Shown in pieces: positions 10,210 to 42,900 of a DNA stretch of 58,299 nucleotides (its first letter is position 1; each line of letters begins with the position of its first letter). Below the pieces are notes generated by a model. The model was not told where the DNA came from and did no database searches. It saw nothing but the letters and a program-made list of their open reading frames with translations. A program made the translations under genes and the position numbers. Source of the stretch: Bacteroidota bacterium (GTDB taxonomy: Bacteria > Bacteroidota > Bacteroidia > Bacteroidales > JACABE01); contig JBAXLO010000001.1 of assembly GCA_037134755.1 (NCBI GenBank), positions 1 through 58,299 on the forward strand. Direction: 5' to 3'.

Positions 10210-10371
10210 ATATTAATTTTTATTTTTGATATTTATAATTCATTTGTATAAACATTCCATTTAGCATGTAAAAGTAGTAAAATAATTAACACGTGAAGTA
10301 AAAAAGAACAAAAAACATTTCTACTAAATTAAAATATGATTTTATTAATAATAATTCCGTACATTTGCATT

Positions 10372-10665
10372 ATGAATTTAGACAATAAATCAATAGAGAC
10401 AATAAAAGAATATTTTGAAACTCGTCCGGTTTTAAAAGCATACCTTTTTGGTTCGTACGTTCGTGACGAAGCGGATGATTCAAGTGATATTGATATTCTT
10501 GTTGATTTAGATTATTCTCAAAAGATTGGTTTGCAATTTATACAAATGAAATTAGATTTAGAGAAACTATTATGTAAAGAAGTTGACTTGGTTTCTTCAA
10601 ATGGGATATCTAAATATATTAAACCTATTGTTGATAATGAAAAACAACTGATATATGCGAAGTAA
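10372..10665 (+). CDS. MNT-type nucleotidyltransferase (antitoxin of an MNT/HepT pair)
   Basis: GSYVRDEADDSSDIDILVD is the minimal nucleotidyltransferase GS...DxD motif. The track ORF starts at 10336. The ATG at 10372 (MNLDNKSIETIKEYF...) fits family N-termini better. Confidence 0.8.
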   Translation: MNLDNKSIETIKEYFETRPVLKAYLFGSYVRDEADDSSDIDILVDLDYSQKIGLQFIQMKLDLEKLLCKEVDLVSSNGISKYIKPIVDNEKQLIYAK

Positions 10666-11002
10666 TCTAGGTGATAAAGTTAGATTGCAGCATATTTTGG
10701 ATGCTATTACTGAGATAGAATCGTATCTTATCAATACTGAGTTTTCTGATTTTATGGATAATTCAATGATGAGGTTTGCTTGTATCAAACAAATGGAGAT
10801 TATTGGAGAAGCAAGTAATCATATCTCTGATGATATTAAATCAAGATTTTCGCAGATAGAATGGGCGCAGATTAATGGTATGAGAAATGTTTTTGTACAT
10901 GAATACTTTGGTATTGATGCTAATTTAGTTTGGGAAATTATTAAAAATGATATCCCAGCATTAAAAGAAAAAATAATTGATGTTTTAGAGTCTTTTGAAT
11001 AA
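10655..11002 (+). CDS. HepT-type HEPN toxin (DUF86)
   Basis: 115 aa and overlaps the MNT gene by 11 nt. RNVFVHEY is the Rx4-6H HEPN motif. Confidence 0.8.
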   Translation: MRSNLGDKVRLQHILDAITEIESYLINTEFSDFMDNSMMRFACIKQMEIIGEASNHISDDIKSRFSQIEWAQINGMRNVFVHEYFGIDANLVWEIIKNDIPALKEKIIDVLESFE

Positions 11003-11038
11003 TAATAAAGATATCAAAATAGAAAATAAATAACTTTT

Positions 11039-11689
11039 CTAATACCCTCCAACTTGCAGTATATGCAATGTCTGAAAAGTTAAAAATTGAATAGCTTTCC
11101 CAATTGGTAATAAATTCAAATGAGTTTGACTATCTATAATTATAATCGCAAATAAACCTATCGCACCATATTTAATTATATTAGCTTCCATTTCTTTACT
11201 AATATTTATTGATTTCAAAATTAAATGAGAACCGTCCAATGGAGGTATAGGTATCATGTTGAAAACAAATAATCCATAGTTAAGGAAAATACAATACATA
11301 TTTATTTGAATTAAATACTTTATCATAACATTATCGGCATCAACTATAAATGGAGTCCATATCTTGAGAATAATAGCGAACAATACTGCAAGAATTACAT
11401 TGGCAATTGGTCCGGCAATGGCAATTAGCTTTTCATCACGACGAGGATTTTTTAGTTTCTCAGGGTTGAAATGTACAGGTTTAGCCCAGCCAAAATGAGC
11501 AATGATTATAAATAATAAACCAAACCAGTCGATGTGTTTTAGTGGATTAAGTGAAACCCGACCTTCCTGAAAAGCCGTATCATCTCCTAATAGATGTCCA
11601 ACTTTTGCATGAGCATATTCATGAAACGTAAGCCCAATTATAATTGCCGGTAATATCGTAATAATAGATTCTAAATCAATTCCTCCCAT
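11039..11689 (-). CDS. site-2 protease family (peptidase M50) membrane metalloprotease
   Basis: HEYAHA (HExxH) lies in the first TM helix. The protein has multiple TM segments and NMIPIPPLDGSH (the LDG motif). Confidence 0.8.
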   Translation of the reverse strand: MGGIDLESIITILPAIIIGLTFHEYAHAKVGHLLGDDTAFQEGRVSLNPLKHIDWFGLLFIIIAHFGWAKPVHFNPEKLKNPRRDEKLIAIAGPIANVILAVLFAIILKIWTPFIVDADNVMIKYLIQINMYCIFLNYGLFVFNMIPIPPLDGSHLILKSINISKEMEANIIKYGAIGLFAIIIIDSQTHLNLLPIGKAIQFLTFQTLHILQVGGY

Positions 11690-11824
11690 AGTAGTTTTTT
11701 TTATTGAAGTAAATATTTCTCAAAATTATATTAATAGATTTTATAAAATTTGATTGATAACGGAAATTTAAGTGTTTACTATATTTATAAAGTATGTTTA
11801 TTATGAATATATATGTTAAAGGCT

Positions 11825-12457
11825 TTATAACTTGTGTAATAGTTCTTTTGTGTTTTTAACAAATAAATCCCATTTATGGTAAAAATGACTGCTCATAATA
11901 GGTATCATTGTTCGGTTGAGGTAGTTTTCTGAAGGTTTAATAAACTTCCCTTCCTGATAATATTCTAACATATTCCTTTTGTTAATTTTGTGTGGGGATA
12001 ATGCTTGCAGGACTTTTAAATTTGTAAAAAACACAGGTATTCTTAACGAAAATAATGTATCTATCTCCTGTTTTAAAGTTGGTTTCCAGATTTCTGCAAA
12101 CTCATACCAATTGGGGTTTTTATCTACATGTCTATTACAATAATTTTGAACCAAATTTTGCACATATATAGTATCAAGACCTAAACCAACCATTCGCAAG
12201 TTAAATTCATGAGTTTTAAAATATTTTGACCCCGGATCTTCTAAACCAAAAACATATTTATAGTTTAATTTAATATCCAAACTAGGGTCAGGGCCTATAA
12301 CAATGGCTTTTACATTAGCTATATTTCCATAAAAAGGTTTTGGCAGATGTTTAGTGTCTACATAATACCTCATTAATTCCTCGTTTTTTATAATAATATC
12401 AATAGCGTTATCATTACTTACATCAAACAAACTTAAGGTTTTATCTACTTGTTTCAT
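11825..12457 (-). CDS. hypothetical protein, possibly uracil-DNA-glycosylase-superfamily fold
   Basis: 210-aa ORF. VIGPDPS, YVQNLVQNY and MSSHFYH are spaced like UDG motifs A, the mid motif and B, but the resemblance is weak. Confidence 0.5.
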   Translation of the reverse strand: MKQVDKTLSLFDVSNDNAIDIIIKNEELMRYYVDTKHLPKPFYGNIANVKAIVIGPDPSLDIKLNYKYVFGLEDPGSKYFKTHEFNLRMVGLGLDTIYVQNLVQNYCNRHVDKNPNWYEFAEIWKPTLKQEIDTLFSLRIPVFFTNLKVLQALSPHKINKRNMLEYYQEGKFIKPSENYLNRTMIPIMSSHFYHKWDLFVKNTKELLHKL

Positions 12458-12634
12458 TTTTTTATTAATTTCTATACAAAAGTACTATTCTTTAGTTATA
12501 AAAGGGTTCTTTTTGTAATATAATATTAAAAAAAATAAAATTAGTCATTAGTTTTAGATAAAAATCCAGACATATTAAGTTAAAGCATATATTATCAATA
12601 ATAAAGTACTTTAAGTAAGGCTGAAAACCTTGTA

Positions 12635-12844
12635 TAATGCAAATGTAAAGTAGGAGGTTTTGCTCAAATGTTGGTGTAATACAAATGTAAAGTAGGAGGT
12701 TTTGAGCCGAAACTGGTGTAATGCAAATGTAAATTTTGAGTGCAAAGGTAAAAGCTGGCTTAATACAAATGTAAAATTTAGGTGCAGATGTAAAAGTTGA
12801 TATAATGCAAATGTAAAATAAGAGTTTTTGAATCCGAGGAAAGC
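12635..12844. repeat. tandem array, 5 x 42 bp (TAATRCAAATGTAAA...)
   Basis: Unit starts at 12635, 12677, 12719, 12761 and 12803 are spaced exactly 42 bp apart. Each unit contains an internal half-repeat (TGCAAATGTAAA / TGCAAAGGTAAA). Confidence 0.9.
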
Positions 12845-13103
12845 TATTTTTTATAAAATAAATTCTAGATGCTTAAACAAGCTATATTTTTAAGTGCTTT
12901 TTACATATATTTTTAAATATAATGGTTAGTTTAGATAAAAAGAATCAATTTGTGTTAAAATAAGTGTATCATAATAGTACAAAATATATCTATTTTAGAA
13001 GTATTTTTAATTTTTATTCAACTATAATAGGTATTAGATGAGATGGTAGTATAATATTTTTAATTTTTATTTATTATTTTGTAATACAGAGCATTTTATT
13101 TTG

Positions 13104-13111
13104 TACATTTG
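13104..13111 (+). promoter_or_regulatory. putative -7 box (TACATTTG) for the 13257-21466 operon
   Basis: A TAnnTTTG match lies about 145 nt upstream of the ATG at 13257, which implies a long leader. Confidence 0.35.
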
Positions 13112-13256
13112 TCAACGAAAACACGAATATCTGACTAATCATTGGGACAAGGTATTGTTTATGGTGTAATGATATGATTTTTATCTATCTCTACCAAAAA
13201 AAAGCCGCCTGTTCGCCTTTTCTTAACAATAGTATTAATAAATTAATAATGTTCAT

Positions 13257-14222
13257 ATGAGCAGCAAACATTCGTTTTACATTACAAATTACTTTCTGAA
13301 TTATACCGTTAATTCCAGAAAAAAGATGGTGGACATAGTGGCATACTTTATGTCGGTAGTTAATCAAGGCATGCCAGATGTTGACCTACAAATAATCTTA
13401 GATAGGACTGATCCTCAGTTTACACTCTACAAGGCTAAATTTAAGACATGGAAACTCGCAAAAGAAACATATCAGAATGCAACTACGCTGATTGAGCAGT
13501 CATTCGGTCATTTACATTTAGATTTAGAAGCTGTTCATGGATTAGTTATAGCAGTTTATCCATCAAACTCTAACGAATATCAGTCTATATTTCGCGATGG
13601 ATTAGATATCTATCATACAGATTCTTATTATCAACGAATTCAACAATTAGGATATTTAAGCGACCGCTTAGGATTATACCTGCCTATGGCAACAGAAAAA
13701 ACTACGATTGCAGGCTTGTGTACTAGTATCTCAGCTCTTAGAGATAAACAACAACAGAAAGCAAAATCTTTAGTTGAAGCTTCTGATGATCTCGAATTGT
13801 GTAGAGTAGATATTGCTGATATGATGTATGGTAACGTTGGTTTATTAATGAATAAATTTCGTAAAACAAGAGATAAAATTCTTAGCTTCTTTAATTTGGA
13901 TTTATTATATGGAAGAGGACAAAAAGAAGTTGCTACAAAGACTTATGGTTTAAATGTTCCTGTTAATTCTTATGGAAAAACAGCAATACAGATAACTTCA
14001 AAAACTACTTTTGGATTTAATAACACAGGCAATGTAATGATGCAAGTTTATACAGCTTCTACACCAGATGCACCAGTACCTACAAATGCGTTAACTATTG
14101 ATGCAGATGTAGAAGTAAATGCAAAAGCTGATACATTAGGAGCAGTAACCAATACCTGGCTTATCGTTTATAATGCTGATGTTAATTTTTCAGGTTCAAT
14201 AGATATTACTGAAACCAACTAA
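13257..14222 (+). CDS. hypothetical protein, orphan helical-N / beta-rich-C family; first gene of the MELLYID/NYN operon
   Basis: 321-aa ORF with no signal peptide. The N-terminal two-thirds are predicted helical and the C-terminal ~100 aa are beta-rich (TYGLNVPVNSYGKTAIQITSKTTFGFNN...). Its layout resembles 25395..26309 and 27158..28090. An alternative start is M24, at 13326. Confidence 0.65.
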   Translation: MSSKHSFYITNYFLNYTVNSRKKMVDIVAYFMSVVNQGMPDVDLQIILDRTDPQFTLYKAKFKTWKLAKETYQNATTLIEQSFGHLHLDLEAVHGLVIAVYPSNSNEYQSIFRDGLDIYHTDSYYQRIQQLGYLSDRLGLYLPMATEKTTIAGLCTSISALRDKQQQKAKSLVEASDDLELCRVDIADMMYGNVGLLMNKFRKTRDKILSFFNLDLLYGRGQKEVATKTYGLNVPVNSYGKTAIQITSKTTFGFNNTGNVMMQVYTASTPDAPVPTNALTIDADVEVNAKADTLGAVTNTWLIVYNADVNFSGSIDITETN

Positions 14223-14245
14223 TACCTTTACTTAAGAATCCGGTT

Positions 14246-14280
14246 ATGTATATATTAGCCTCAAAAGCTAATATGTACAT
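14246..14280 (+). terminator. intra-operon hairpin (possible partial terminator or attenuator)
   Basis: ATGTATATATTAGC-CTCAAAA-GCTAATATGTACAT is a 14-bp stem with one mismatch. A TTTTT run follows 8 nt later. Confidence 0.45.
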
Positions 14281-14307
14281 TGCTGCATTTTTCAAATTCT
14301 TATCGTT

Positions 14308-15399
14308 ATGGAATTACTATATATTGATTTAATAACAAAAAATATTCAATGTGAATCTGAATATTATTATTTCATTGTAAACTATATAATAGGCAAAAAA
14401 ATTTCCTTACATTCAAATATAGGATTTTATAATTTCATTAATAAAAATAAAAAAAGAATTAGTTTATCTGATTTCATTAAATATTATGAAAGTTATTGTA
14501 TTTATTTTCATAAAGATAATAAAGAAGAACTTGATGTTGTCTTTAGCTATTGTGATGATTTTAAAATTTTTAATAAAGATTACAAAGCCTATTCAAAGAA
14601 GAAGAATTTAACAAAAGAACAATTAGTATTTATGAATTGCCATAATACTAACTACAATATGATAAAAGAAAAATTAATTGATATTTGCAAAAATAATATG
14701 ACATCATTAAATCTAATGGCCTATTCTGATTTAATAAATGATGATATAATTGAAACAAGTTTTTCATTATTCAAAAGAAATGGAAAAATTGATGATATTG
14801 AATTGAGTGAAATTATTTTTAATAATTTTTTATCAAAAGAAAAATTAGTTATAGCAGGAAGTTTCTATGAAAAAGTTATTGATTCTATGAATAAATATAA
14901 AGAAGAAAATGAGATAGAAGGAGAAAAATCTAATAAAATATTTTTGCCAGATTTACCATTATTGAAATTCCCTATATCAAGTGAAATATCAAAAGAGCAT
15001 TTGCAATTAATTAGATTACAATTTAATTCACAGATTACCATTTTGTTTGATAAAATACAAAACTATAGAATTAATGAATTGCAACATGAAATTAATGAAA
15101 CACTTGCAGAAAAATTATCTGTGTTTTACAAAACATTACATGAGGATATAGAAATTATTCAAAATAAAATAGATGAAAATATATTTTTTCAAAAAATAAT
15201 AAACTCAGATTCTATATATAAAACAGTAATAGTAAATTTGGGTATAGTTCCTTATTTTACTCTGGTATGTTTGTATTTTTCTCTAAAAGCAATTACTATA
15301 GAAAAATTTTTAGAATTAAGAAATAGATGTAATTACGAACTCGGAACTTTTACAGGTGATTTTTTTCTTTATTATGAAATAGAACCTAAAATAAATTAA
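14308..15399 (+). CDS. MELLYID-family paralogue 1 (hypothetical, no recognisable domain)
   Basis: 363 aa. Starts MELLYIDLITK..SEYYYFIVNYIIGKK and ends FFLYYEIEPKIN. Clear paralogy to the next four ORFs. Confidence 0.75.
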   Translation: MELLYIDLITKNIQCESEYYYFIVNYIIGKKISLHSNIGFYNFINKNKKRISLSDFIKYYESYCIYFHKDNKEELDVVFSYCDDFKIFNKDYKAYSKKKNLTKEQLVFMNCHNTNYNMIKEKLIDICKNNMTSLNLMAYSDLINDDIIETSFSLFKRNGKIDDIELSEIIFNNFLSKEKLVIAGSFYEKVIDSMNKYKEENEIEGEKSNKIFLPDLPLLKFPISSEISKEHLQLIRLQFNSQITILFDKIQNYRINELQHEINETLAEKLSVFYKTLHEDIEIIQNKIDENIFFQKIINSDSIYKTVIVNLGIVPYFTLVCLYFSLKAITIEKFLELRNRCNYELGTFTGDFFLYYEIEPKIN

Positions 15400-15483
15400 G
15401 AAGAAAATGAAATTGAATAAAGTTAGAAATATGAATGGATTTATTAAAAATACATTAATAATTAAAAACTAATTATTACAATT

Positions 15484-16593
15484 ATGGAATTGCTATATAT
15501 AGATTATATGAAAACGCAAAATCAATTTGATTCTGAATATTATTATTTTATTATAAATTATTTAATTGGTGAAAAGATTCAAATGCATTCTAACTTTGGA
15601 TTTTATATGCATGTTGTTAAAAATATTAATAAGTTAAGCAAATATGAACTTGTAGATTATCTTGAAAATTATATGATTCAAAGCACTTTACATACTCCTT
15701 GCGATTTAAAAGATTTTTTTGCTACAAAAGATATGTATAGTAGAACTAATAAGCTAGTTACAAAAATTTTAAAGCACGGTAAAATGCCAAAGATAGACTT
15801 TGAAATAGTGAAATCCTTTAACGATTTAATAGCAACAAATAAATCTGAATTACTAAGAATATGTAATGAATTATTAGAAAAGCAACATTTATTGCCTTAT
15901 GTTGATTTACTTGATAATGATATTTTAAAGACTTCTTTTTCTTTATATAATCGTGATGTAACTATAAAAGAAAAGGAAATTGGGGAAATTATATATAATA
16001 ACTTTAAAAGAAAAGATAGGCTTTTAGTTTTGGGAAGCATGATTGGTATGCAAATGGACTTGTTTTTAGTTGAAGATGGAATTGGGACCTCAAAAAATGA
16101 AGAAGACTTAGTAACTGTTGGATCTTCATGTTTATTAACAATTCCATGCTCAAAAAAATTAACAAAGGATAATCTTATTTTTATTAGAAAGCAATTCCAT
16201 GCAAAATTTGATTCTTTATTTGCCAAAATATATGATTTCCGATCAAAATTTCTTAAAAAAGAGTTAGATGATGACCTAATGATAGAATTTAATAATTTTA
16301 CTTCAGAAATAGAAAATGAATTGGAAATATTACAACTTGAAATAGACAACCATATCTATTTTCAGAAAATTAAAAATTCAGATCCTGATTATGTAAATAT
16401 AAGTATCAATTTGGGAGTTCTACCAATTGATTTAATTTTTATGGTTTATGTTACGTCAAATGTAATTTCATTTGATAAATACTTAGAATTAAGTATTAGA
16501 GAATATAATGAAATAGGTAAAGGTATGGGAGATATTTATCTTTATTATGAAATTGAACCAAAAATAAACGAAGAAGAAAATACAGAAGAATAA
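15484..16593 (+). CDS. MELLYID-family paralogue 2
   Basis: 369 aa. Contains MELLYIDYMK..SEYYYFIINYLIGEK, IPCS, QKIKNSDPDYVNISINLGVL and IYLYYEIEPKIN. Confidence 0.75.
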   Translation: MELLYIDYMKTQNQFDSEYYYFIINYLIGEKIQMHSNFGFYMHVVKNINKLSKYELVDYLENYMIQSTLHTPCDLKDFFATKDMYSRTNKLVTKILKHGKMPKIDFEIVKSFNDLIATNKSELLRICNELLEKQHLLPYVDLLDNDILKTSFSLYNRDVTIKEKEIGEIIYNNFKRKDRLLVLGSMIGMQMDLFLVEDGIGTSKNEEDLVTVGSSCLLTIPCSKKLTKDNLIFIRKQFHAKFDSLFAKIYDFRSKFLKKELDDDLMIEFNNFTSEIENELEILQLEIDNHIYFQKIKNSDPDYVNISINLGVLPIDLIFMVYVTSNVISFDKYLELSIREYNEIGKGMGDIYLYYEIEPKINEEENTEE

Positions 16594-16693
16594 AATTTTT
16601 AATTGCTTTTTAAATACACACATAAATTGTGTAAATACTTATTTATAAATTTTATTAGTTCAGATATTCATTAAAATAATTAATATTTAAGTT

Positions 16694-17800
16694 ATGGAAT
16701 TATTGTATATAAACGATGTTAAAGATGATAAACAACTTGATGAAGAGGTTTTTTACTTTATTGTTAATTACATTATAAGTGAAAATGTAACGATACATTC
16801 AAATGTTGGGTTTGGCTTAGAAATGTTTAAAAAGATTGATTGTTTTTCTGATGATGAAGTAATGAAGTATTTAGAAAGTTATTTTTTTATAATACAGCCC
16901 CAAATTACATCACGTTTATCTGAAGAACTTAAAAAAATTGATGGATTGAAGGAGTGTATGAAAACCTACAAACAATTAAAACATCGGAATCAATTACCTC
17001 CAGGACATTTCAAATATCTTCAGACATTAAAAACAAGGTATTTAGATTATCGGAAAACCTTCAAGGGGTTTTTGAATGATTATGTACGATTTTTGGGAAT
17101 ATATAAATATGTAGATTTATATGACGAAGTTATAATAAAAGCAAGCTATACCGACATTAATAGAGATTGGGAATTAATCGACCAGGAGCTTGGGGAAATA
17201 TTATATAACAATATTTCAAACCGAAAAAATCTAATATTACTTCATGATCTATCAAATTTAGAGGAATTTGACGCAAATAAAGAAGTTGATGAAGAACAAA
17301 AAGCCTTGCTTATCGAATTGTTTACATTGCATAAAATTCTATTAGTAACTATTCCATGTTCCGTTAATTTACAATTAAACGAACTAGTAGTTTTGAGACA
17401 AAGGTTTTTAAACAATTTTACTGAATTATTCTCAAGAATACAATTTTTTAGAAAAGATATTAATAAAATTGACACAGTTGAAACGTTAACAGAAAAATTA
17501 AATGAATTTAAATCTGAAATTAAAGATGATTTACAAAAAATACAAAACGAAATAAATACAAATCTATACTTCCTGAAAATTAAAAATTCAGATTCAGATT
17601 ACACAAATGTTACTATTAATCTTGGTATATTATTTAATGTAACTATATTTAATTATTTCTCTGTGAGAAATTTGATATCGCCTGATAAATATTCAGAATT
17701 AGAATATAGGTTAAATAATAAATTAAATGAAAAGTATTATGATTTATTTATATACTATAAAATTGACTTAGATATAAATAAATATAAAATTAGCGAATAA
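16694..17800 (+). CDS. MELLYID-family paralogue 3
   Basis: 368 aa. Contains MELLYINDVK, IPCS, LKIKNSDSDYTNVTINLGIL and LFIYYKIDLDIN. Confidence 0.75.
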   Translation: MELLYINDVKDDKQLDEEVFYFIVNYIISENVTIHSNVGFGLEMFKKIDCFSDDEVMKYLESYFFIIQPQITSRLSEELKKIDGLKECMKTYKQLKHRNQLPPGHFKYLQTLKTRYLDYRKTFKGFLNDYVRFLGIYKYVDLYDEVIIKASYTDINRDWELIDQELGEILYNNISNRKNLILLHDLSNLEEFDANKEVDEEQKALLIELFTLHKILLVTIPCSVNLQLNELVVLRQRFLNNFTELFSRIQFFRKDINKIDTVETLTEKLNEFKSEIKDDLQKIQNEINTNLYFLKIKNSDSDYTNVTINLGILFNVTIFNYFSVRNLISPDKYSELEYRLNNKLNEKYYDLFIYYKIDLDINKYKISE

Positions 17801-17822
17801 TAATTAAAAAACACATATAATT

Positions 17823-18908
17823 ATGGAATTGCTATATGTAGATAATATTACTAAAGAGTTTCAATATGAGAACGAATACTATTATTTTGTATTTAATTAT
17901 ATAATTGGAAAAAGAGTTCATTTGCATTCTAATGTGAGTTTTTGCTTTCATGTTATTAAAAATATAAGTAAATTTAAAGAGAATGAGATTCTGGATTTAT
18001 ATGAGATTAACAGCTTCCACAAAAATGTTGAAGAAGGTAGAGATTTGGAGGAGGTAACAAAAGGATATGAGCTTATTAAAAAACAATCTCCATTTGTAAA
18101 ACAACTAAAGAAACAAAAAAGATTAAATAAAGAAAGATTTGGCTTAGTACAAACATTTAATCAAGTTTTAACTTCAAGTAGAGATATTTTAAGAGAGTCA
18201 TGTAAAGATGACTTAGAAGCTATGGATTTATTGCCTTATATTGATTTAATTGATGAAGGTGTTATTATAACAAGTTATTCAACCTATAATAAAGTAGGAA
18301 AGATTGATGATTGTGAAATTGGAGAGAAATTGTTACAAACATATATTAATAGAGATAAAATATTAGTTTTAGGTAGTATATTGCCTATTTTGGCTAAACC
18401 AATATTACCAGAAGATATAAAAAGAATTCCTCCTTTGTTTTCAAGGAAAGTTTGTTTAGTAGGTATTCCACTTGTTTATATTCCTTGTTCAATAGGTTTT
18501 AAAAAAGACTCTCTTGTTTTATTACGTAAACAATTTATGAGTAAGTTTGATAAATTATTGGAGAAAATTCAATCTTTTAGGATTGAAATAAATACGTTGA
18601 CATTTAACAAAGAGATTAAAAATAAGATACTAGCATTTCAGGAATTATTAAATCAGGATTTAACGATGCTTCAAGATGAAATTAATACTAATATTTATTT
18701 CCAAAATGTAATTAATTGTGGAAAAGAGTATAATAATGTGTTTTTAATACTAGGCATACTTCAAAATGAATATATAGGTTTGTTTCATATAAGTAATTAC
18801 GCATTAAGTAAAGAAAAACATTTGGAATCAAATGAAGTAATAAAAAATAAAATTGGGAAAAACAAAAGTGAAGTCTTTCTCTATTATAATATAGAACAGA
18901 ATAGATAG
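17823..18908 (+). CDS. MELLYID-family paralogue 4
   Basis: 361 aa. Contains MELLYVDNITK..NEYYYFVFNYIIGKR, IPCS and VFLYYNIEQNR. Confidence 0.75.
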   Translation: MELLYVDNITKEFQYENEYYYFVFNYIIGKRVHLHSNVSFCFHVIKNISKFKENEILDLYEINSFHKNVEEGRDLEEVTKGYELIKKQSPFVKQLKKQKRLNKERFGLVQTFNQVLTSSRDILRESCKDDLEAMDLLPYIDLIDEGVIITSYSTYNKVGKIDDCEIGEKLLQTYINRDKILVLGSILPILAKPILPEDIKRIPPLFSRKVCLVGIPLVYIPCSIGFKKDSLVLLRKQFMSKFDKLLEKIQSFRIEINTLTFNKEIKNKILAFQELLNQDLTMLQDEINTNIYFQNVINCGKEYNNVFLILGILQNEYIGLFHISNYALSKEKHLESNEVIKNKIGKNKSEVFLYYNIEQNR

Positions 18909-18926
18909 ATTAATAATCTTAATAAT

Positions 18927-20042
18927 ATGAATTTAACTTTTATAAATAGAACAACTTCCAAAATATTACCAATGTCTGAGAACATTTATTTTTATTGTTC
19001 TTATATTATTGCTGATACGTCTTCTTATCATGCAGTGTTTTCGATGATGGAAGATTTTAGTGACTTGAAAATAGAAAGTAATAATGAAGAGTTTATTTTG
19101 GAGCTTTATCTTTTATTTAATAAAGATAATATTAATTGCGATGTGCTTAGGAGTGAAGCTAATATTTTGTTTTCTTGGTGTCAGAAACATAAGAGTGTAA
19201 ATCATAAGACAAAAGAGATGATTATTAATTATCAAAGAAAAAATCTTTTACTTAGAAAGATGTTGAATTTTATAGTAGATTTCTATCAAAACATGACAAG
19301 TAGTTTTGGGTTTGCAAAAGATCAATTAGGATTAATAGATGGGAAGATTGCTTCTTGTATTAGAAATATTTATGAAAGTGAAGATTATTTAGATGAACAT
19401 ACAGAAGATTCTTTAATAACATTGATTCCAGAATACTTATTTAGAAAAGAGAACTATTTTGTAATAGAAACTCTTATAGAGGATATTCTTAAGCCTTTTT
19501 ATATAAAAGATCCTGACCATTCAATTAATATTATGAATGAAAATGAATTTGTATGTATGCCATTATTTAAGATACCTTATTTTAGATTCTTTAACTCGAA
19601 TAGTTTGGTGTCGATAAGGAATACTTTAAAATCGAGTATGGGTGTTCTTTCAGATATTATTAATGATTTCCAAGATAATCTTAAAGAATTTGATTTTGAT
19701 AATAATGCAATAGATGTTATAAATAGTTATGTGCCGAAAGTACAATTAATATCTACTAATATACAGGAGCAAATAGACACTCAAGTTTATATTAAGAAAG
19801 AAATGAATTCAGGTTCAATGTTTCTTAATATGCAAATATATCTTGGTATATGTAAAATCAAATCAATACCTGAGTATTTTAGTGAAGCCGAAATAATAAA
19901 GCCTTTTATAATTGATTCAATTAATAAAAATATAGAAATAAAAGGTAATTTAAATAAAAGTCAGGTGTTCATTTATATGAAACCTGAGGAACAATCAATA
20001 CATGAATTCTTAGTATCTTATAAAAATAATTTAACATGTTAA
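18927..20042 (+). CDS. MELLYID-family paralogue 5, divergent member
   Basis: 371 aa. The N-terminus has diverged (MNLTFINRTTSK..ENIYFYCSYIIAD), but the family blocks are retained: LFKIPYF, LVSIRNTL, QVYIKKEMNSGSMFLNMQIYLGI, VFIYMKPEE. Confidence 0.7.
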   Translation: MNLTFINRTTSKILPMSENIYFYCSYIIADTSSYHAVFSMMEDFSDLKIESNNEEFILELYLLFNKDNINCDVLRSEANILFSWCQKHKSVNHKTKEMIINYQRKNLLLRKMLNFIVDFYQNMTSSFGFAKDQLGLIDGKIASCIRNIYESEDYLDEHTEDSLITLIPEYLFRKENYFVIETLIEDILKPFYIKDPDHSINIMNENEFVCMPLFKIPYFRFFNSNSLVSIRNTLKSSMGVLSDIINDFQDNLKEFDFDNNAIDVINSYVPKVQLISTNIQEQIDTQVYIKKEMNSGSMFLNMQIYLGICKIKSIPEYFSEAEIIKPFIIDSINKNIEIKGNLNKSQVFIYMKPEEQSIHEFLVSYKNNLTC

Positions 20043-21466
20043 AACAAAAAATCGAACATTTTGAGGTGTCCGGCTTATCCGGATTTAAGTCTGTGGAATT
20101 AATAAAGATTAAAGACTTTGTTAAGATCTCCGACATATTAAAGGTGTATCATGTCTTCATAACTGAAAATAAAGTTGATGAAGAAATTAACAGAGCCTTC
20201 AATATTTTAAACAATGATATTATTTATAATATCAATTCAAATGGATTTATTTCTGTTGATGATTTTGATGATGCAGATGATAAAGGCTTTGAGAACGCTG
20301 AGGATTATGCTGAAGCAAAAAAAGGAGGCTACCATAACTATAAAGAGTTTGTGGAATTCCGTCAGTCGGGGGTGATTGATAGAAATGTGTATAAAAAAGC
20401 ACAGAAGTTAGGTTTCGTTGATAACTTTGATGACTTTAAAAAGAAATTAGAGCTAAATAAGAAGACGATACCCGAAGATTTTGATCTTAGTGAATATGAT
20501 AATTCATTAAAGTTGTTTCAATTTGCAAACGATCGTGGGTTTAAAGATTATGGTGATTTTGCTAAAGGCTTCTTTCTAGGCTTTACAGAGAAAATTATGA
20601 TGGATGAAGCAAAAGACAAAGGCTTTACTTATGCTAAAGATTATATTGGAGCCGTTTCTATGGGTTTTGATAATATTAGAGAGTTTCAGGAAGCAACTCA
20701 TCTTAATATTAAGAATAAGATTGAATTTAAAATGTTTGATAAGTTGAGGAGGATCTCTAAAAACATCCATGGTTTTGATGGAGCTCAGCTTATTGAAGCT
20801 CTTAAGATATATGAGAATGGCAAGCGTTTATCTATAAAGAAAATTTCGGAACTTATTGAACTGGAAAAAGAAAAGTGTAAACAATGCACTAGTGATAAAG
20901 GTATCAAAGAGCTACCTGAATGGTACGATCTTAAATTAAATACTAATGCTGATATCGAACAATTCTTGAAAACATGCACTGAGCTTAAAGATTATGGCTT
21001 TTATGATGCAGATGGTGAGTTTTTTGAAGTCTCTCGTCTTTCAGATACAACTATTTATATTGATGGTAGTAATGTTGCTTATGCTGATAATGGAAATAAA
21101 AAAGAAAACAAACCACAATATCTTAATATTATAACTTTAGCTCAACATTTAAAAGAACTTCGCTACAAAGATATCATTGTTATAGTAGATGCTAGTCTTA
21201 ATCATACAGTTACTGACCCTTTGTATTTAAGTACATTAAAGCAGAGTGCTCAATATCTGGAAGCTCCGGGTAATACTTCAGCTGATGAGTTCCTAATAGA
21301 AAACGCTAAGAAAAATAAATGTTACATAGTTACTAATGATACCTTCAGAGATTGGAAAGCTAAAGATAGCTGGATCTTTGAAAACATCGATCGTATCAGA
21401 GTTCCTTTCCTTAGAAACAGTAACGGTACGTTTAGTACTCCTTCGCTTGACTTAATAAAGGATTAG
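20036..21466 (+). CDS. Zc3h12a-like NYN-domain ribonuclease with N-terminal GF-repeat region
   Basis: The C-terminal ~130 aa read IYIDGSNVAY...IIVIVDASL...SADEFLIENAKKNKCYIVTNDTFRDW. This matches the MCPIP1/Zc3h12a NYN pattern (DGSNVA ... DD/DE ... SND...RD). The start overlaps the stop of the preceding gene (ATGTTAA). Confidence 0.8.
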   Translation: MLKQKIEHFEVSGLSGFKSVELIKIKDFVKISDILKVYHVFITENKVDEEINRAFNILNNDIIYNINSNGFISVDDFDDADDKGFENAEDYAEAKKGGYHNYKEFVEFRQSGVIDRNVYKKAQKLGFVDNFDDFKKKLELNKKTIPEDFDLSEYDNSLKLFQFANDRGFKDYGDFAKGFFLGFTEKIMMDEAKDKGFTYAKDYIGAVSMGFDNIREFQEATHLNIKNKIEFKMFDKLRRISKNIHGFDGAQLIEALKIYENGKRLSIKKISELIELEKEKCKQCTSDKGIKELPEWYDLKLNTNADIEQFLKTCTELKDYGFYDADGEFFEVSRLSDTTIYIDGSNVAYADNGNKKENKPQYLNIITLAQHLKELRYKDIIVIVDASLNHTVTDPLYLSTLKQSAQYLEAPGNTSADEFLIENAKKNKCYIVTNDTFRDWKAKDSWIFENIDRIRVPFLRNSNGTFSTPSLDLIKD

Positions 21467-21493
21467 TATTAAATGCTCTTCTATACGCAAGGT

Positions 21494-21540
21494 CACAATA
21501 ATGGGATTATGAATATTGTATTTGTAATCCTTTTATTGTG
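21494..21540 (+). terminator. imperfect hairpin after the NYN gene (operon terminator candidate)
   Basis: CACAATAATGGGATTA ... TAATCCTTTTATTGTG, followed by a T-rich tract. Confidence 0.4.
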
Positions 21541-21599
21541 TCTTTATTTAAAGTCGAATAACTTTTGTGAAAATGCACTTTAATTTGGTACTTATTTTG

Positions 21600-21607
21600 T
21601 AAATTTG
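21600..21607 (+). promoter_or_regulatory. putative -7 box (TAAATTTG) for the HAD gene
   Basis: A TAnnTTTG match lies 34 nt upstream of the ATG at 21641. Confidence 0.4.
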
Positions 21608-21640
21608 CAGCCTATTAAAACAATTATTTAAATACATCTT

Positions 21641-22324
21641 ATGTTTTCAGATATAGATAACAATCAATTCAATATTAATAAATCTAAGTATTCTCATTTT
21701 ATTTTTGACTGGAATGGTACCTTAATGGATGACCTTTGGCTTGCCGTTGATGTTATTGATAAGATGCTTGTTAAAAGAGGACTTTCCGGTATGACAATAG
21801 AACACTACAGCGAAGTGTTTGATTTTCCTGTTAAAGATTATTACGAGAAGATAGGTTTTGATTTTCAAAAAGAGAGTTTCGAACTTATAGGTACTGAGTT
21901 TATTGACGGATATAATGAGCGTCAATACGAATGCAAACTTCAGGTAGGAGCAAACGAGCTATTAAGAAATCTGAGCAGGCTACCAATTCAGTTAAGTGTG
22001 CTTTCGGCTCGCATTCAACATACTTTAGAAGAAAATCTGGATCATTATGGTATCTATAATCACTTTATGCATGTTGCCGGGTTAGATGACCATTATGCCA
22101 ATGGTAAACTGGGTGCGGGTATTGAGTTGCTTAATAAGACATCAATCCCAAAAGGGGACACTCTTATGATAGGCGATACTTTGCACGATGCTGAAGTAGC
22201 TAAAGAATTAGGTATTGATTGTGTTTTGGTAGTCTCAGGACATCAATCCGAAAAACGATTATTGTCAGCTAATGTGCCTGTATTTGATACTTTAGTTGAA
22301 TTAAATAAAGTCCTTTTGGCATAA
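21641..22324 (+). CDS. HAD-superfamily hydrolase (phosphoglycolate-phosphatase-like)
   Basis: Motif I-like FIFDWNGTLMDD and motif IV IGDTLHDAEVA. The length and layout are typical of HAD subfamily IA. Confidence 0.8.
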   Translation: MFSDIDNNQFNINKSKYSHFIFDWNGTLMDDLWLAVDVIDKMLVKRGLSGMTIEHYSEVFDFPVKDYYEKIGFDFQKESFELIGTEFIDGYNERQYECKLQVGANELLRNLSRLPIQLSVLSARIQHTLEENLDHYGIYNHFMHVAGLDDHYANGKLGAGIELLNKTSIPKGDTLMIGDTLHDAEVAKELGIDCVLVVSGHQSEKRLLSANVPVFDTLVELNKVLLA

Positions 22325-22395
22325 AGTTTGTTTTATTAACATCGTTTAGTTGAAAAAGAACTGAAATAGGTTGTTTTGCATCTGTATTTGTGTAC

Positions 22396-22403
22396 TAACT
22401 TTG
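22396..22403 (+). promoter_or_regulatory. putative -7 box (TAACTTTG)
   Basis: It lies inside the TTG-initiated long ORF and 48 nt upstream of the ATG at 22451. This supports the shorter start. Confidence 0.35.
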
Positions 22404-22450
22404 TAAACTTATTATGGTTTCCATTTCAATTGGAAAATAAACATTTTGCT

Positions 22451-25234
22451 ATGAATAACATGCTTTTAAAGTCCCTAAATATTAATCTGAGAAATTATTT
22501 CAGAGATTTGCTTATTATTTCATTGTTTGTCTTTTCGTCATACAATGCCTATTGTATTAAAGGCGGGGTAGTTGACAATTACGGCAAGATTGTCCCTTTT
22601 GCCACTATTCGATTTGTTGATCAGTCCGATTCCACAAAGGTTTTCATGGGGTTTACCGATGCTTTGGGGAACTACAACGTTGATGTGCCATTGATAAATT
22701 ATTCGGATGGTAATAAAAACTTTATGTTTTTTGATATTTACCCAAATCCTGCCACTAATGGCGTTGTTATTCCGCTCAATTTGATGAATGCCGGCTATTT
22801 GTTAGTGTATGTTTACAATACATATGGTGAGAGGGTCAATACTATATATGATGGCAATTACAGTTCCGGTTTGTATCAGTTTATATGGGATGGGCGAACG
22901 AATGCACATCAAAGGGTTGCCCCCGGTATTTATTTTGTGCAGGTGATATTTAATGGGCGAACAGCCACTAGGAAAGTGGTGTTAATGGAGAATGATGGCA
23001 ATGCCGTTAGCCCCGTGCCTATGAACAATTTTTTAAATAAATTTGAACCCTTTAAGATAAAATACACCGTTACCATAACACGCGACAGCGTTATAGATCC
23101 ATTTTATTTAACAAATTATGAAGTTTTAAAACCTGATTCCAATAATTTTATGGTTAACAGGCATGTTCCTATACCTTATAGAGTTGAAGGGAACTTTCTG
23201 TCAGTATATAATATCAATGATAGCACTTATAAAAAGATATTTATAAAAGGGATTAATCTCGGTGTTGGTATTCCCGGCACTTATCCCGGCGATCTGGCTG
23301 CTGATTCGCTTACTTATGTAAGGTGGTTTAAGATGATGGATTCCGCAGGGTTTAATGCTATCCGTGTTTACACACTTCACTACCCTCGTTTTTATAATGC
23401 TATAGCTAAGCACAATGAGGATAATCCCGATCATCCATTGTATTTATTGCATGGTATTTGGCTTGATGAAGATACTATTTATAAGTTGAATAATAACTTT
23501 TATAAATATGCCGAAGGTTATGATATTGATATAAAAGAAATTGTTGATTGCCTTCATGGTCGAAAAATTATAGGACCTAGGCCTGGTAGAGCTTACGGCA
23601 CTTTTAATACTGATGTTTCTCGTTGGGTTATCGGTTATATCGAAGGACGCGAAATCAGTCCTTATGAAGTATTGGGTACTGACACTGTAAATACTTCTCA
23701 TACAAGTTATAATGGATATTCTAATGCAATAATTCTACCAAGTGGTGGCACTCCGATGGAATGCTGGATGGCTGCACATTTAGATTATTTAGTAAAGTAC
23801 GAAAGAACTACTTATTTTCATGAGCGTCCTGTTAGTTTTACCAGCTGGCCTACCTTAGATCCTATTAAACATCCAACTGAACATCCAAATTATGGCAGTT
23901 CCGAAGATATTGTTCAGGTTAATTTAAACAAACTTGTGTTGAAAAATGCTCCGGCAGGCTTCTTTTTAAGCTATCACGTTTATCCGTATTTCCCTGATTT
24001 TATTACGCAAGGTCCTTATCATTTATATTCTGACTCTATTGGCCCTTGTCCTTATTTTGAATATGTAAAAACTTTAAAAGGTCAGTATAATTATCCGCTT
24101 CTGGTTGCTGAATTTGGAGTGCCTACAAGTTGGGGAAATGCTCATTTCGAATTTAATGGAATGACTCAGGGCGATGAAGATGAAGTACAACAAGGTGATT
24201 TCAACGTTCGCATGTATAAAGACATTTATCAAGCAGGTTGTGCAGGTGGTTGTATGTTTGCATGGATTAATGAGAATTTTAAGCAGAGTTGGATCATTGA
24301 TCCAACAAGCTGTGGTGTTGATCGTAGAATACTTTGGCATAATCTGGCAAGTCCCGAAGAAAACTTTGGCTTGTTAAAGTTTGTTGAAGATCCTCCTTCT
24401 TATAATCGTTGGCCCGCTACCTATCCTTCCTATGATTCTAGTAGAATTAAAAAGATTCAAGCAGATTATGATAATGAATACTTCTATGTTAATGTTGCTT
24501 ATAACTCTTTATTAGCTACTGATTCTTTGTATATAGGATTTGATACTTATGGTGATGCAGTTGGGGAGAATTTTTTTCCTAATCATGTAGGAACTGTTTA
24601 CAATTTTTGTGAATTTATGTTGGTTATAACCTCTGATTCGGCTAATTTATATGTAGAGCAAACTTATGACACTTATTGCAGTAGCCCTAAGTTTCCCTTA
24701 GCTGATTCGGCTGTGCAAAAATTTCATTCCGAAGCTACAGGTGACGTTCCTTGGAATATACTTAGATGGAGGAATAACTTTCCGGATAGCTGTAACTTTT
24801 ATGCAGGCAGACTTAGAAACTGCAATTTTACTGATACACCAAGTAGTAATACTGCTGTTGTGCGTTATCCCGACCATGTAGAGGTACGTATTCCATGGCA
24901 TTTCTTAAATTTTACCGACCCCTCGGATCTCGAAGCCCTTGATTGCGAAACGTGTACTGGTAATGGTATTAGGCCTCACGAACCACCCATTTCGATGTTT
25001 GATGCATCTTCTCTTCCCCGAGAAACTACTTATACTACCGGTATAGCATTGAGTGTTTTAATGGGTAATGACCAAAACAATTTAGTGGAAACAAGTCGCT
25101 TTTTATGGAATACCTGGGGGATTGATATGGGCACCGGTTTATATACACCACCTTCGCCTGTTAAAGAAGTTAAGAAACAATCTTATAACATTATTAAGAA
25201 TTGTTTGCTAAATACACCCTTTACTCCTTACTAG
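22451..25234 (+). CDS. secreted multidomain protein: CarbopepD_reg-like + T9SS-CTD/FlgD-Ig-like beta-sandwich + putative TIM-barrel glycoside hydrolase
   Basis: Start is moved from the TTG at 22376 to the ATG at 22451 (MNNMLLKS...SSYNAYC signal). IKGGVVDNYGKIVPFATIRF is CarbopepD_reg-like. FDIYPNPATNG...GIYFVQVIFNGRTATRKVVLM is CTD-like but N-proximal. IKGINLGVGIPG...GFNAIRVYTLHYP...LVAEFGVPTSWG is GH-like. Confidence 0.7.
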   Translation: MNNMLLKSLNINLRNYFRDLLIISLFVFSSYNAYCIKGGVVDNYGKIVPFATIRFVDQSDSTKVFMGFTDALGNYNVDVPLINYSDGNKNFMFFDIYPNPATNGVVIPLNLMNAGYLLVYVYNTYGERVNTIYDGNYSSGLYQFIWDGRTNAHQRVAPGIYFVQVIFNGRTATRKVVLMENDGNAVSPVPMNNFLNKFEPFKIKYTVTITRDSVIDPFYLTNYEVLKPDSNNFMVNRHVPIPYRVEGNFLSVYNINDSTYKKIFIKGINLGVGIPGTYPGDLAADSLTYVRWFKMMDSAGFNAIRVYTLHYPRFYNAIAKHNEDNPDHPLYLLHGIWLDEDTIYKLNNNFYKYAEGYDIDIKEIVDCLHGRKIIGPRPGRAYGTFNTDVSRWVIGYIEGREISPYEVLGTDTVNTSHTSYNGYSNAIILPSGGTPMECWMAAHLDYLVKYERTTYFHERPVSFTSWPTLDPIKHPTEHPNYGSSEDIVQVNLNKLVLKNAPAGFFLSYHVYPYFPDFITQGPYHLYSDSIGPCPYFEYVKTLKGQYNYPLLVAEFGVPTSWGNAHFEFNGMTQGDEDEVQQGDFNVRMYKDIYQAGCAGGCMFAWINENFKQSWIIDPTSCGVDRRILWHNLASPEENFGLLKFVEDPPSYNRWPATYPSYDSSRIKKIQADYDNEYFYVNVAYNSLLATDSLYIGFDTYGDAVGENFFPNHVGTVYNFCEFMLVITSDSANLYVEQTYDTYCSSPKFPLADSAVQKFHSEATGDVPWNILRWRNNFPDSCNFYAGRLRNCNFTDTPSSNTAVVRYPDHVEVRIPWHFLNFTDPSDLEALDCETCTGNGIRPHEPPISMFDASSLPRETTYTTGIALSVLMGNDQNNLVETSRFLWNTWGIDMGTGLYTPPSPVKEVKKQSYNIIKNCLLNTPFTPY

Positions 25235-42190: not shown

Positions 42191-42900
42191 TATATTTGCA
42201 ATCAAATTATGGTATAACAATTTTCAAACGTTTTATGGGCTTTATCTAATATAAAAATAATGACAACTTCAGCTACTTATGTAAGAAATATTCTTAAAAG
42301 TTGCATAGAATTAAAACTCCGTGGTGTCATTACTAAGCCAATATCCAAAACAAATTTCGTTAAGAATACTAAAAAACTCCGTTTAGAAGGTCTAATCATA
42401 CCAAATGGCAGTTTAGAGCTAGACTATGACTTCATAGAGTTCGACCGTGACTTCATAGACCTAGACAATGATTGTCTAGACCTAAACCGTGACTGCCTAG
42501 ACCTAGACAATGGCTTCATAGACCTAGACAATGACTTTATAGGTCTAGACAATGACTTTATAAGTCTAGACAATGACTTCATAGATCTAGACAATGACTT
42601 TATAAGCCTAGACAATGATTTCATAGAGCTAGACAATGGCAGTCTAGGCTTAAACCGCTTTTTGGCATTCCTAAGATCTATCATTTTGGTAACGTTCTGT
42701 TATTTGCTTAAATACAAACAAAATAAAATTAAACCATTTTTTAAAATTAAGTACTCGATTTATAATGTTACAGGATTTCATTTTAATTTAGACTTTATTA
42801 ATTTTCATATATTAAGGCAACTTTTTATCATATTTAAGTTGTTGTTTAATCAAAAGCATCAATATTGGTACGAATCGAATTATTTTTCATAGTGTAGATA
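42191..42900 (+). other. conserved-flank tandem-repeat element A (promoter-like box, 5' box, 21-bp array, 3' box); nature unresolved (long leader, ncRNA, small repeat protein or DNA-level element)
   Basis: TATATTTG at 42191-42198. The 5' box at 42303-42345 and the 3' box at 42746-42808 are both shared with element B at 52.5 kb. The track ORF 42260..42892 runs through the whole element. Confidence 0.6.
42398..42649. repeat. tandem array, about 12 x 21 bp (CTAGACAATGACTTCATAGAC)
   Basis: Units start at 42419, 42440, 42461 and so on to 42629, with exact 21-bp spacing. A degenerate unit lies at each end. Confidence 0.95.

Follow-up and report, generated by a model that had tools for sequence, protein, structure and literature searches.

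The RNases MCPIP1, KHNYN and N4BP1 protect animal cells against viruses, and the animal members of the Zc3h12a/KHNYN family act both as antiviral proteins and as regulators of immunity. An arrangement in which a conserved effector is accompanied by a variable, diverged second component is known from Thoeris, where several divergent thsB sensors stand by one thsA effector, and from type I restriction-modification (R-M) systems with multiple hsdS genes. Bacterial proteins of the Zc3h12a-type family PF11977 have been placed under 'unknown function' in a classification of the PIN superfamily (PMC5499597). Here, we analyze a 58,299-nucleotide (nt) stretch of DNA from a Bacteroidota bacterium (GenBank assembly GCA_037134755.1, contig JBAXLO010000001.1, positions 1 to 58,299; hereinafter, the window), in which the gene for such an RNase, the NYN protein, follows a tandem array of five diverged paralogues, the partners. 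Partner and NYN genes form a genuine, conserved two-component chromosomal module that is previously undescribed. Our search of the literature found no description of a system that combines an NYN protein with such an array; HEC-09 (bioRxiv 2024.01.29.577857), an NYN protein that did not confer defence, is of another, MARF1-like type.

The NYN RNase and its upstream partners

The NYN protein (476 amino acids (aa); 20036-21466, + strand) ends in a Zc3h12a-type NYN (PIN-like) RNase domain (aa 338-449; 21047-21382, +), which matches PF11977 (RNase_Zc3h12a) with an E-value of 8.1e-14 and a score of 52.1 bits, the gathering cut-off being 23. All 41 full-length homologues (33-97% identity, about 455-490 aa) have precomputed matches to the same family, and in the PDB the family profile retrieves the structures of ZC3H12C, KHNYN, ZC3H12B and ZC3H12A (E-values of 9e-6 to 2e-4). 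The motifs DGSNVA, ADEF and SNDTFRD align to the active-site motifs of the ZC3H12/KHNYN proteins (ZC3H12C and KHNYN); among 21 homologues, D343, N346, D385, D417, E418, N434 and D435 are invariant and D439 is nearly so. The acidic active-site residues of MCPIP1 are D141, D225, D226, D244 and D248 (PMC5499597). Four of these, D141, D226, D244 and D248, align to D343, D417, D435 and D439, and the position of D225 is occupied by Ala416, with E418 and D385 invariant. The domain is predicted to be a Mg2+-dependent endoribonuclease with an intact active site, and the earlier note on this DNA, which had recognized a Zc3h12a-type domain with its acidic residues in place, is borne out on this point.

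The N-terminal region of the NYN protein (aa 1-335; 20036-21040, +) is conserved across the homologues and has no match in Pfam, NCBIfam, PADLOC or PHROGs; a PDB sequence search returned no match outside the NYN domain. The structural model of this region (mean predicted local distance difference test score (pLDDT) 88.4) consists of a small alpha/beta domain, about 11 short helices that recur with a period of approximately 14 residues (GFxxxxDYxxA), and a mixed alpha/beta segment (aa 247-332). Comparison of this model with the PDB using Foldseek yielded no match below an E-value of 0.17 and no query-normalised TM-score above 0.2.

Directly upstream, on the same strand, lie the partner paralogues 1 (14308-15399, 363 aa), 2 (15484-16593, 369 aa), 3 (16694-17800, 368 aa), 4 (17823-18908, 361 aa) and 5 (18927-20042, 371 aa). 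Pairwise identity within the array is 22-36%, and the NYN-proximal paralogue 5 is the most divergent, sharing 22-27% with the other four; it starts with MNLTFIN, and the others start with MELLY(I/V). Together with gene 1 (321 aa), which is discussed below, these genes make up a block of seven co-directional open reading frames (ORFs) on the + strand, with successive gaps, from gene 1 to paralogue 5, of 85, 84, 100, 22 and 18 nt. The stop codon of paralogue 5 overlaps the NYN start codon by 7 nt (ATGTTAA, 20036-20042); judging from this overlap, the proximal partner is translationally coupled to the NYN protein in the window lineage. The earlier note had listed eight ORFs, six of them paralogues of the MELLYID type, and seven proteins without a family. 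Its gaps of 18-100 nt and its overlap proved accurate, as did the lack of any library family for gene 1 and the paralogues; its counts were each one too high, the proteins without a family numbering six.

The partners have no match in Pfam, NCBIfam, PADLOC or PHROGs, ten distant members of the family likewise have none in Pfam, and a PDB sequence search with the partner profile returned nothing. An AlphaFold2 model of paralogue 1 (pLDDT 85.6, predicted TM-score 0.83) has a mixed alpha/beta fold for which Foldseek found no match in the PDB or BFVD (best E-value 0.58, query-normalised TM-scores of at most 0.2). These results agree with the expectation in the earlier note that the paralogues do not belong to a well-characterised housekeeping family. 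Positions conserved throughout the family, namely E18, K99/K101/K103, P222, R236, Q285, D289, Y293, N299 and G312, form no recognised motif. A word-indexed search of 5.8 billion proteins recovered just five close relatives, and an exhaustive profile search of 1.84 billion cluster representatives recovered 222 family members at E<=1e-3; among the matches listed, nearly all are full-length, at 340-380 aa. The relatives that we checked are named 'hypothetical protein', lack Pfam domains and come from Bacteroidota, Ignavibacteriota and one metagenome-assembled genome (MAG) labelled Hyphomicrobiales. We propose that the partners represent an uncharacterised family of cytoplasmic proteins of about 355 aa.

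The distribution of the NYN protein was determined by scanning its alignment against one genome per species for 185,579 species (GTDB). The full-length architecture is sporadic, occurring at about 40 Bacteroidota loci, and matches to the NYN domain only were found in Gemmatimonadaceae and other groups. A hidden Markov model of the partner family was built from 134 sequences, and all ORFs of the NYN loci were searched with it. At 29 of the 37 loci with enough upstream sequence to be informative, the NYN gene is immediately preceded on its own strand by at least one partner gene (E<=1e-3). The count rises to 31 with two weaker Flavobacterium loci, one of them in the isolate F. aureirubrum J3, where a 368-aa gene stands upstream (E-values of 4.5e-10 and 6.7e-7); the J3 gene (locus L046), the only one of the two compared by hhalign, aligned to the partner family with 80% probability. 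There is one partner copy at 15 loci, and there are two at nine, three at four, four at one and five at two. In an Ignavibacteriota MAG, a single partner gene lies 15 nt upstream of the gene for a 472-aa NYN protein. The earlier note had staked its proposal on the two families occurring together elsewhere, and so they do: the pairing recurs in about 30 other genomes and is therefore a real gene module. The flanking genes vary from locus to locus, and there is no conserved third gene.

Some loci bear signs of decay. At locus L031 (5016-6086), the sole partner gene is interrupted, giving ORFs of 115 and 235 aa; at L043 (9992-11407), which lacks a partner, the NYN gene is broken into two ORFs (209 and 231 aa). 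At both of the partner-less loci L043 and L047, the NYN gene is split or truncated. The 477-aa lipoprotein encoded upstream of the NYN gene at L008 and L025 does not qualify as an overlooked partner, with an hhalign probability of 0.5%.

Turnover and divergence of the partner array

Four metagenome contigs share the gene order of the window, from the MNT-HepT pair through the M50 peptidase, a 210-aa gene, gene 1, the array and the NYN gene to the HAD hydrolase. At this one syntenic site, the window has five partner copies, and the four contigs have 11, 10, at least six plus an 86-aa remnant, and at least six. The remnant (7324-7584 in L002, 2728-2988 in L003) is a fusion of two partner genes, with a 5' end like that of paralogue 4 and a 3' end like that of paralogue 5; compared to the window, about 1.9 kb has been deleted. 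In the strain represented by L002 and L003, the overlap at the NYN start is no longer present; L096 and L097 share with the window both the subtype of the terminal partner and the 7-nt overlap.

The rates of evolution were compared between the window and the strain with 11 copies, S3480, using the ratio of nonsynonymous to synonymous substitution rates (dN/dS). The NYN protein is 97% identical between the two (dN/dS 0.038), and the neighbouring gene 1 (95%, 0.08), HAD hydrolase (90%, 0.08) and HepT (95%, 0.05) are similarly constrained. The dN/dS values of paralogues 1, 3, 4 and 5 are 0.17-0.31, such that the partners evolve 4-8 times faster than the NYN protein by this measure, in line with the rapid divergence surmised in the earlier note. 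Paralogues 1 and 4 are each 91% identical to their counterparts (S3480.1 and S3480.10), paralogue 3 is 68% identical to S3480.7 (and 88% to the fifth copy of L002), and paralogue 5 is 72% identical to its counterpart; paralogue 2 lacks an orthologue in the sister strains (maximum identity 47%).

Divergence within arrays is deep at every multi-copy locus: paralogues of the same locus are 20-70% identical, mostly 22-54%. Many arrays look like lineage-specific expansions. The NYN-proximal copy takes 65% of the best cross-locus matches, compared to the 26% expected from its share of the members of multi-copy loci, an excess that modestly suggests a slow-evolving, ancestral partner in this position. 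The GC content of the partner genes is, on average, 2.4 percentage points below that of the flanks (9 points in the window), and that of the NYN gene matches that of its flanks.

Gene 1 and other features of the locus

Gene 1 (13257-14222, +; 321 aa) has no match in Pfam, PADLOC, NCBIfam or PHROGs, and a PDB sequence search with it returned nothing. Its homologues are confined to the window lineage and one related MAG (L006/L017), with weak relatives on the opposite strand at L029 and L036. In that MAG (Bacteroidales nzgw131, GCA_023251515.1; L006/L007/L017, 1821-7046), a defence pair of SIR2_2 (417 aa) and HerA/DUF87 (696 aa) and a 520-aa gene with no known family separate the gene 1 homologue from two partner genes, so that the interval from gene 1 to the NYN gene may be an insertion hotspot. 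In the window, gene 1 is followed by a strong RNA hairpin (14241-14285, +; dG -20.1 kcal/mol, z-score -6.0), possibly a terminator or attenuator that sets gene 1 apart from the array. The earlier note had included gene 1 in the system; because of its restricted distribution, the SIR2-HerA insertion at L006 and the hairpin, we rejected it as a core component and regard it as a lineage-specific neighbour outside the module. The MAG that includes L017 has a further, partial NYN copy on another contig (L029), with a gene-1-like ORF on the opposite strand (E-value 2e-32); a single genome can thus hold two NYN loci.

The non-coding features described in the earlier note were all found. The array is AT-rich, with a GC content of 0.21-0.25 compared to 0.30-0.38 in the flanks. 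In the 799-nt spacer 5' of gene 1, there are five 42-bp tandem repeats (12620-12835; invariant core TAATRCAAATGTAAA), against 0.18 matches expected by chance; the closest strain, L005, has three copies. The repeats may serve as tandem promoters or as an array of operators, and their link to the module is uncertain. Their reverse complement holds TACATTTG, a Bacteroidota -7-like box facing a 210-aa gene at 11825-12457. The intergenic sequences of the block contain a single Bacteroidota-type -7 box on the + strand (TAnnTTTG, here TACATTTG), upstream of gene 1 at 13104-13111; the spacers of the array have none. This box is a candidate promoter for gene 1 and, by read-through, possibly for the array. 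The hairpin downstream of the NYN gene, which is followed by a U-rich tract (21489-21545, +; dG -24.4 kcal/mol, z-score -6.9), is the likely terminator of the unit. A scan for sigma-70 promoters detected sites no more frequently than in shuffled sequence, an Rfam scan of 11000-22500 returned just a sub-threshold chance match to a snoRNA, and a tRNA search found no tRNA genes.

Antisense ORFs of 64-150 aa on the - strand within the array and the NYN gene (15897-16349, 17242-17475 and 20576-20979) are probably chance ORFs of AT-rich sequence. About 2 kb upstream of the block, overlapping genes encode an MNT (nucleotidyltransferase, 109 aa) and HepT (115 aa) toxin-antitoxin (TA) pair (10336-11002, +), which is kept in strain L005 as well. 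Two 210-aa ORFs without a Pfam family are present in the window, at 11825-12457 (-) and 42260-42892 (+); every sister strain has the former in synteny with the module. Beyond the HAD gene, a 952-aa protein is encoded at 22376-25234 (+); its homologue in L097 has weak matches to FlgD_ig and to Por_Secre_tail, the sorting domain of the type IX secretion system (T9SS), in keeping with a Bacteroidota host.

Functional readings and known systems

The gene link, the copy-number variation, the asymmetry of rates, the intact active site and the lack of a known family or fold are direct observations. For what lies behind them, we tentatively favour, at slightly less than even confidence, a conflict module made up of an effector and diversified regulators or sensors, in which partners facing variable ligands control a constant NYN RNase. 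The NYN protein would be the effector and cut RNA; the partners would bind it, probably via the conserved helical-repeat N-terminal region, and would set the timing or the target of its action. They would most likely meet variable external ligands, for example, components of phages or other invaders. The array could then be a set of germline-encoded sensors or adaptors that all serve one RNase, growing by tandem duplication and shrinking by deletion between copies. Taken together, the near-invariance of the effector, the age, high divergence and strain-to-strain turnover of the partners, and the translational coupling of the proximal copy suggest that the partners track variable ligands and that the RNase is a constant effector. 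The earlier note had proposed an RNase effector co-transcribed with a diversified array, and the gene link at the core of that proposal holds, without its gene counts and the inclusion of gene 1.

A role of the module in conflict or defence is probable, and a defence function itself is an unproven hypothesis. A more specific version, which we consider possible and rather doubtful, is that of a new immune system of Bacteroidota and Ignavibacteriota directed against phages or mobile elements. In such a system, each sensor would recognize a different component of an invader and license the one NYN RNase, which would stop translation or degrade the RNA of the invader.

Several results weigh against a conflict role. 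Among 113 genes flanking the module at about 40 loci (a raw count of two genes per side), only a handful are recognised by defence models (among them HerA, two type IIG R-M enzymes and mad2), and the rest are ordinary housekeeping, metabolic and envelope genes. Relatives of neither the NYN protein nor the partner were found in IMG/VR, and tblastn of the NYN protein alone gave no match among INPHARED phages and PLSDB plasmids. There is no adjacent partner at six of the 37 informative loci and at the metagenome-contig locus L008, and the NYN gene is intact throughout the partner-less clade of L008, L019 and L025; a partner could lie elsewhere in these genomes. Conversely, a census from the partner side, comprising three look-ups, found one gene linked to NYN and two distant family members that stand without it. 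Finally, the dN/dS of the partners is below 1 over the whole gene, which could reflect relaxed constraint instead of positive selection. Individual conflict genes do occur nearby: MNT-HepT in the window, SIR2-HerA inside L006 and MazEF beside L013. Along with the sporadic distribution and the varying flanks, they speak for an accessory nature of the module.

The predominance of housekeeping neighbours and the chromosomal location are what one would expect if the module served regulated processing of cellular RNA, with the partners as interchangeable adaptor or specificity subunits that steer the RNase to particular RNAs or conditions. The strong purifying selection on the NYN protein (dN/dS 0.03-0.04), the lineages that have it without a partner, and the part that eukaryotic Zc3h12a-family RNases play in regulated mRNA decay (PMC5499597) fit this explanation too. 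We nevertheless consider it unlikely: the module occurs in only about 40 of the 185,579 species genomes and has no conserved synteny with genes of RNA metabolism, and a copy number that ranges from 5 to 11 between close strains, combined with fast partner evolution, would be unusual for adaptors. An addiction module, with the NYN protein as toxin, the coupled upstream partner as antitoxin and the extra copies as redundant or orphan antitoxins, would account for the gene order and the 7-nt overlap, which recall type II TA operons with PIN-like toxins, and for the pairing kept across loci, and other TA pairs do adjoin the module. Type II antitoxins are proteins of about 70-120 aa with a DNA-binding domain, paired with a small toxin; here, the partner is some 355-375 aa long without a recognisable DNA-binding domain and the supposed toxin has 476 aa. 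A nearly invariant toxin has no need of 5-11 antitoxins that are just 22-36% identical, and a type II toxin is always accompanied by its antitoxin, as the intact NYN genes of the partner-less clade, and six informative loci overall, are not. Coupled with the lack of the module on plasmids and phages in the searches above (with NYN queries, and the partner queried in IMG/VR), these properties make addiction quite improbable.

Diverged tandem paralogues next to a nuclease gene also recall the immunity arrays that have been described for polymorphic toxins (PMC3482391), and the earlier note saw a resemblance to defence or polymorphic toxin-immunity logic. The NYN protein would then be delivered to competitors, and the paralogues would be immunity proteins against self and non-self variants. 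Such toxins combine an N-terminal trafficking domain with variable C-terminal toxin cassettes. In the NYN protein, Pfam detects no signal peptide and no RHS, type VI secretion system, T9SS or other trafficking domain, which argues against this reading, and it is the C-terminus that is conserved. Moreover, the N-terminal region is kept across the whole NYN family, the nuclease is 97% identical between strains, and the array lies upstream, not downstream, of the nuclease gene. We regard delivery to competitors as highly improbable, and the polymorphic half of that earlier suggestion is weakened; its defence half remains a hypothesis.

The effector-and-sensor reading, if correct, would represent an immune architecture of a new type and give the NYN-based antiviral defence of eukaryotes a counterpart in bacteria; if it is wrong, two new protein folds and a tractable pair of an RNase and its regulator remain. 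In either case, the locus supplies a conserved genetic partner for bacterial enzymes of the Zc3h12a/KHNYN family, one whose tandem copies can number at least 11 and change from strain to strain next to a constant RNase. Flavobacterium aureirubrum J3 is a carrier available in culture.

In line with the earlier note, which knew of no named system that fits, none of the seven proteins of the block has a significant match in PADLOC-DB v2.0.0; just Csx20 appears, at E-values of 0.003-0.007, over a coiled-coil stretch. VapBC-type TA cassettes resemble the module in being small and self-contained, with an upstream partner gene coupled to the gene for a PIN-fold RNase. Both proteins of the module are, however, 3-5 times the size of their VapBC counterparts, the partner has no detected DNA-binding antitoxin domain and comes in 1-11 diverged copies, and the RNase at times lacks a partner. 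Polymorphic toxin and immunity loci share with it the tandem, fast-diverging paralogues beside a nuclease gene, but the neighbours of the module include no secretion genes. Thoeris and multi-hsdS type I R-M systems, a possible parallel, likewise combine one conserved effector with a variable number of diverged copies; in the module, Pfam and PADLOC detect neither a TIR-domain ThsB nor a SIR2/SLOG ThsA, and TIR, SIR2, SLOG and HsdS domains are absent. The closest relationship is that to the eukaryotic Zc3h12a/MCPIP1, ZC3H12B/C and KHNYN proteins, with which the catalytic domain is homologous, such that DGSNVA, (A/D)D(E/R)F and SNDxxRD align. Compared to MCPIP1, the bacterial enzyme has Ala in place of D225 and Glu after the next Asp, and, unlike its eukaryotic relatives, it carries no CCCH zinc finger or KH domain; it has a 335-aa N-terminal region for which no relative is known and a genetic tie to the partner array.

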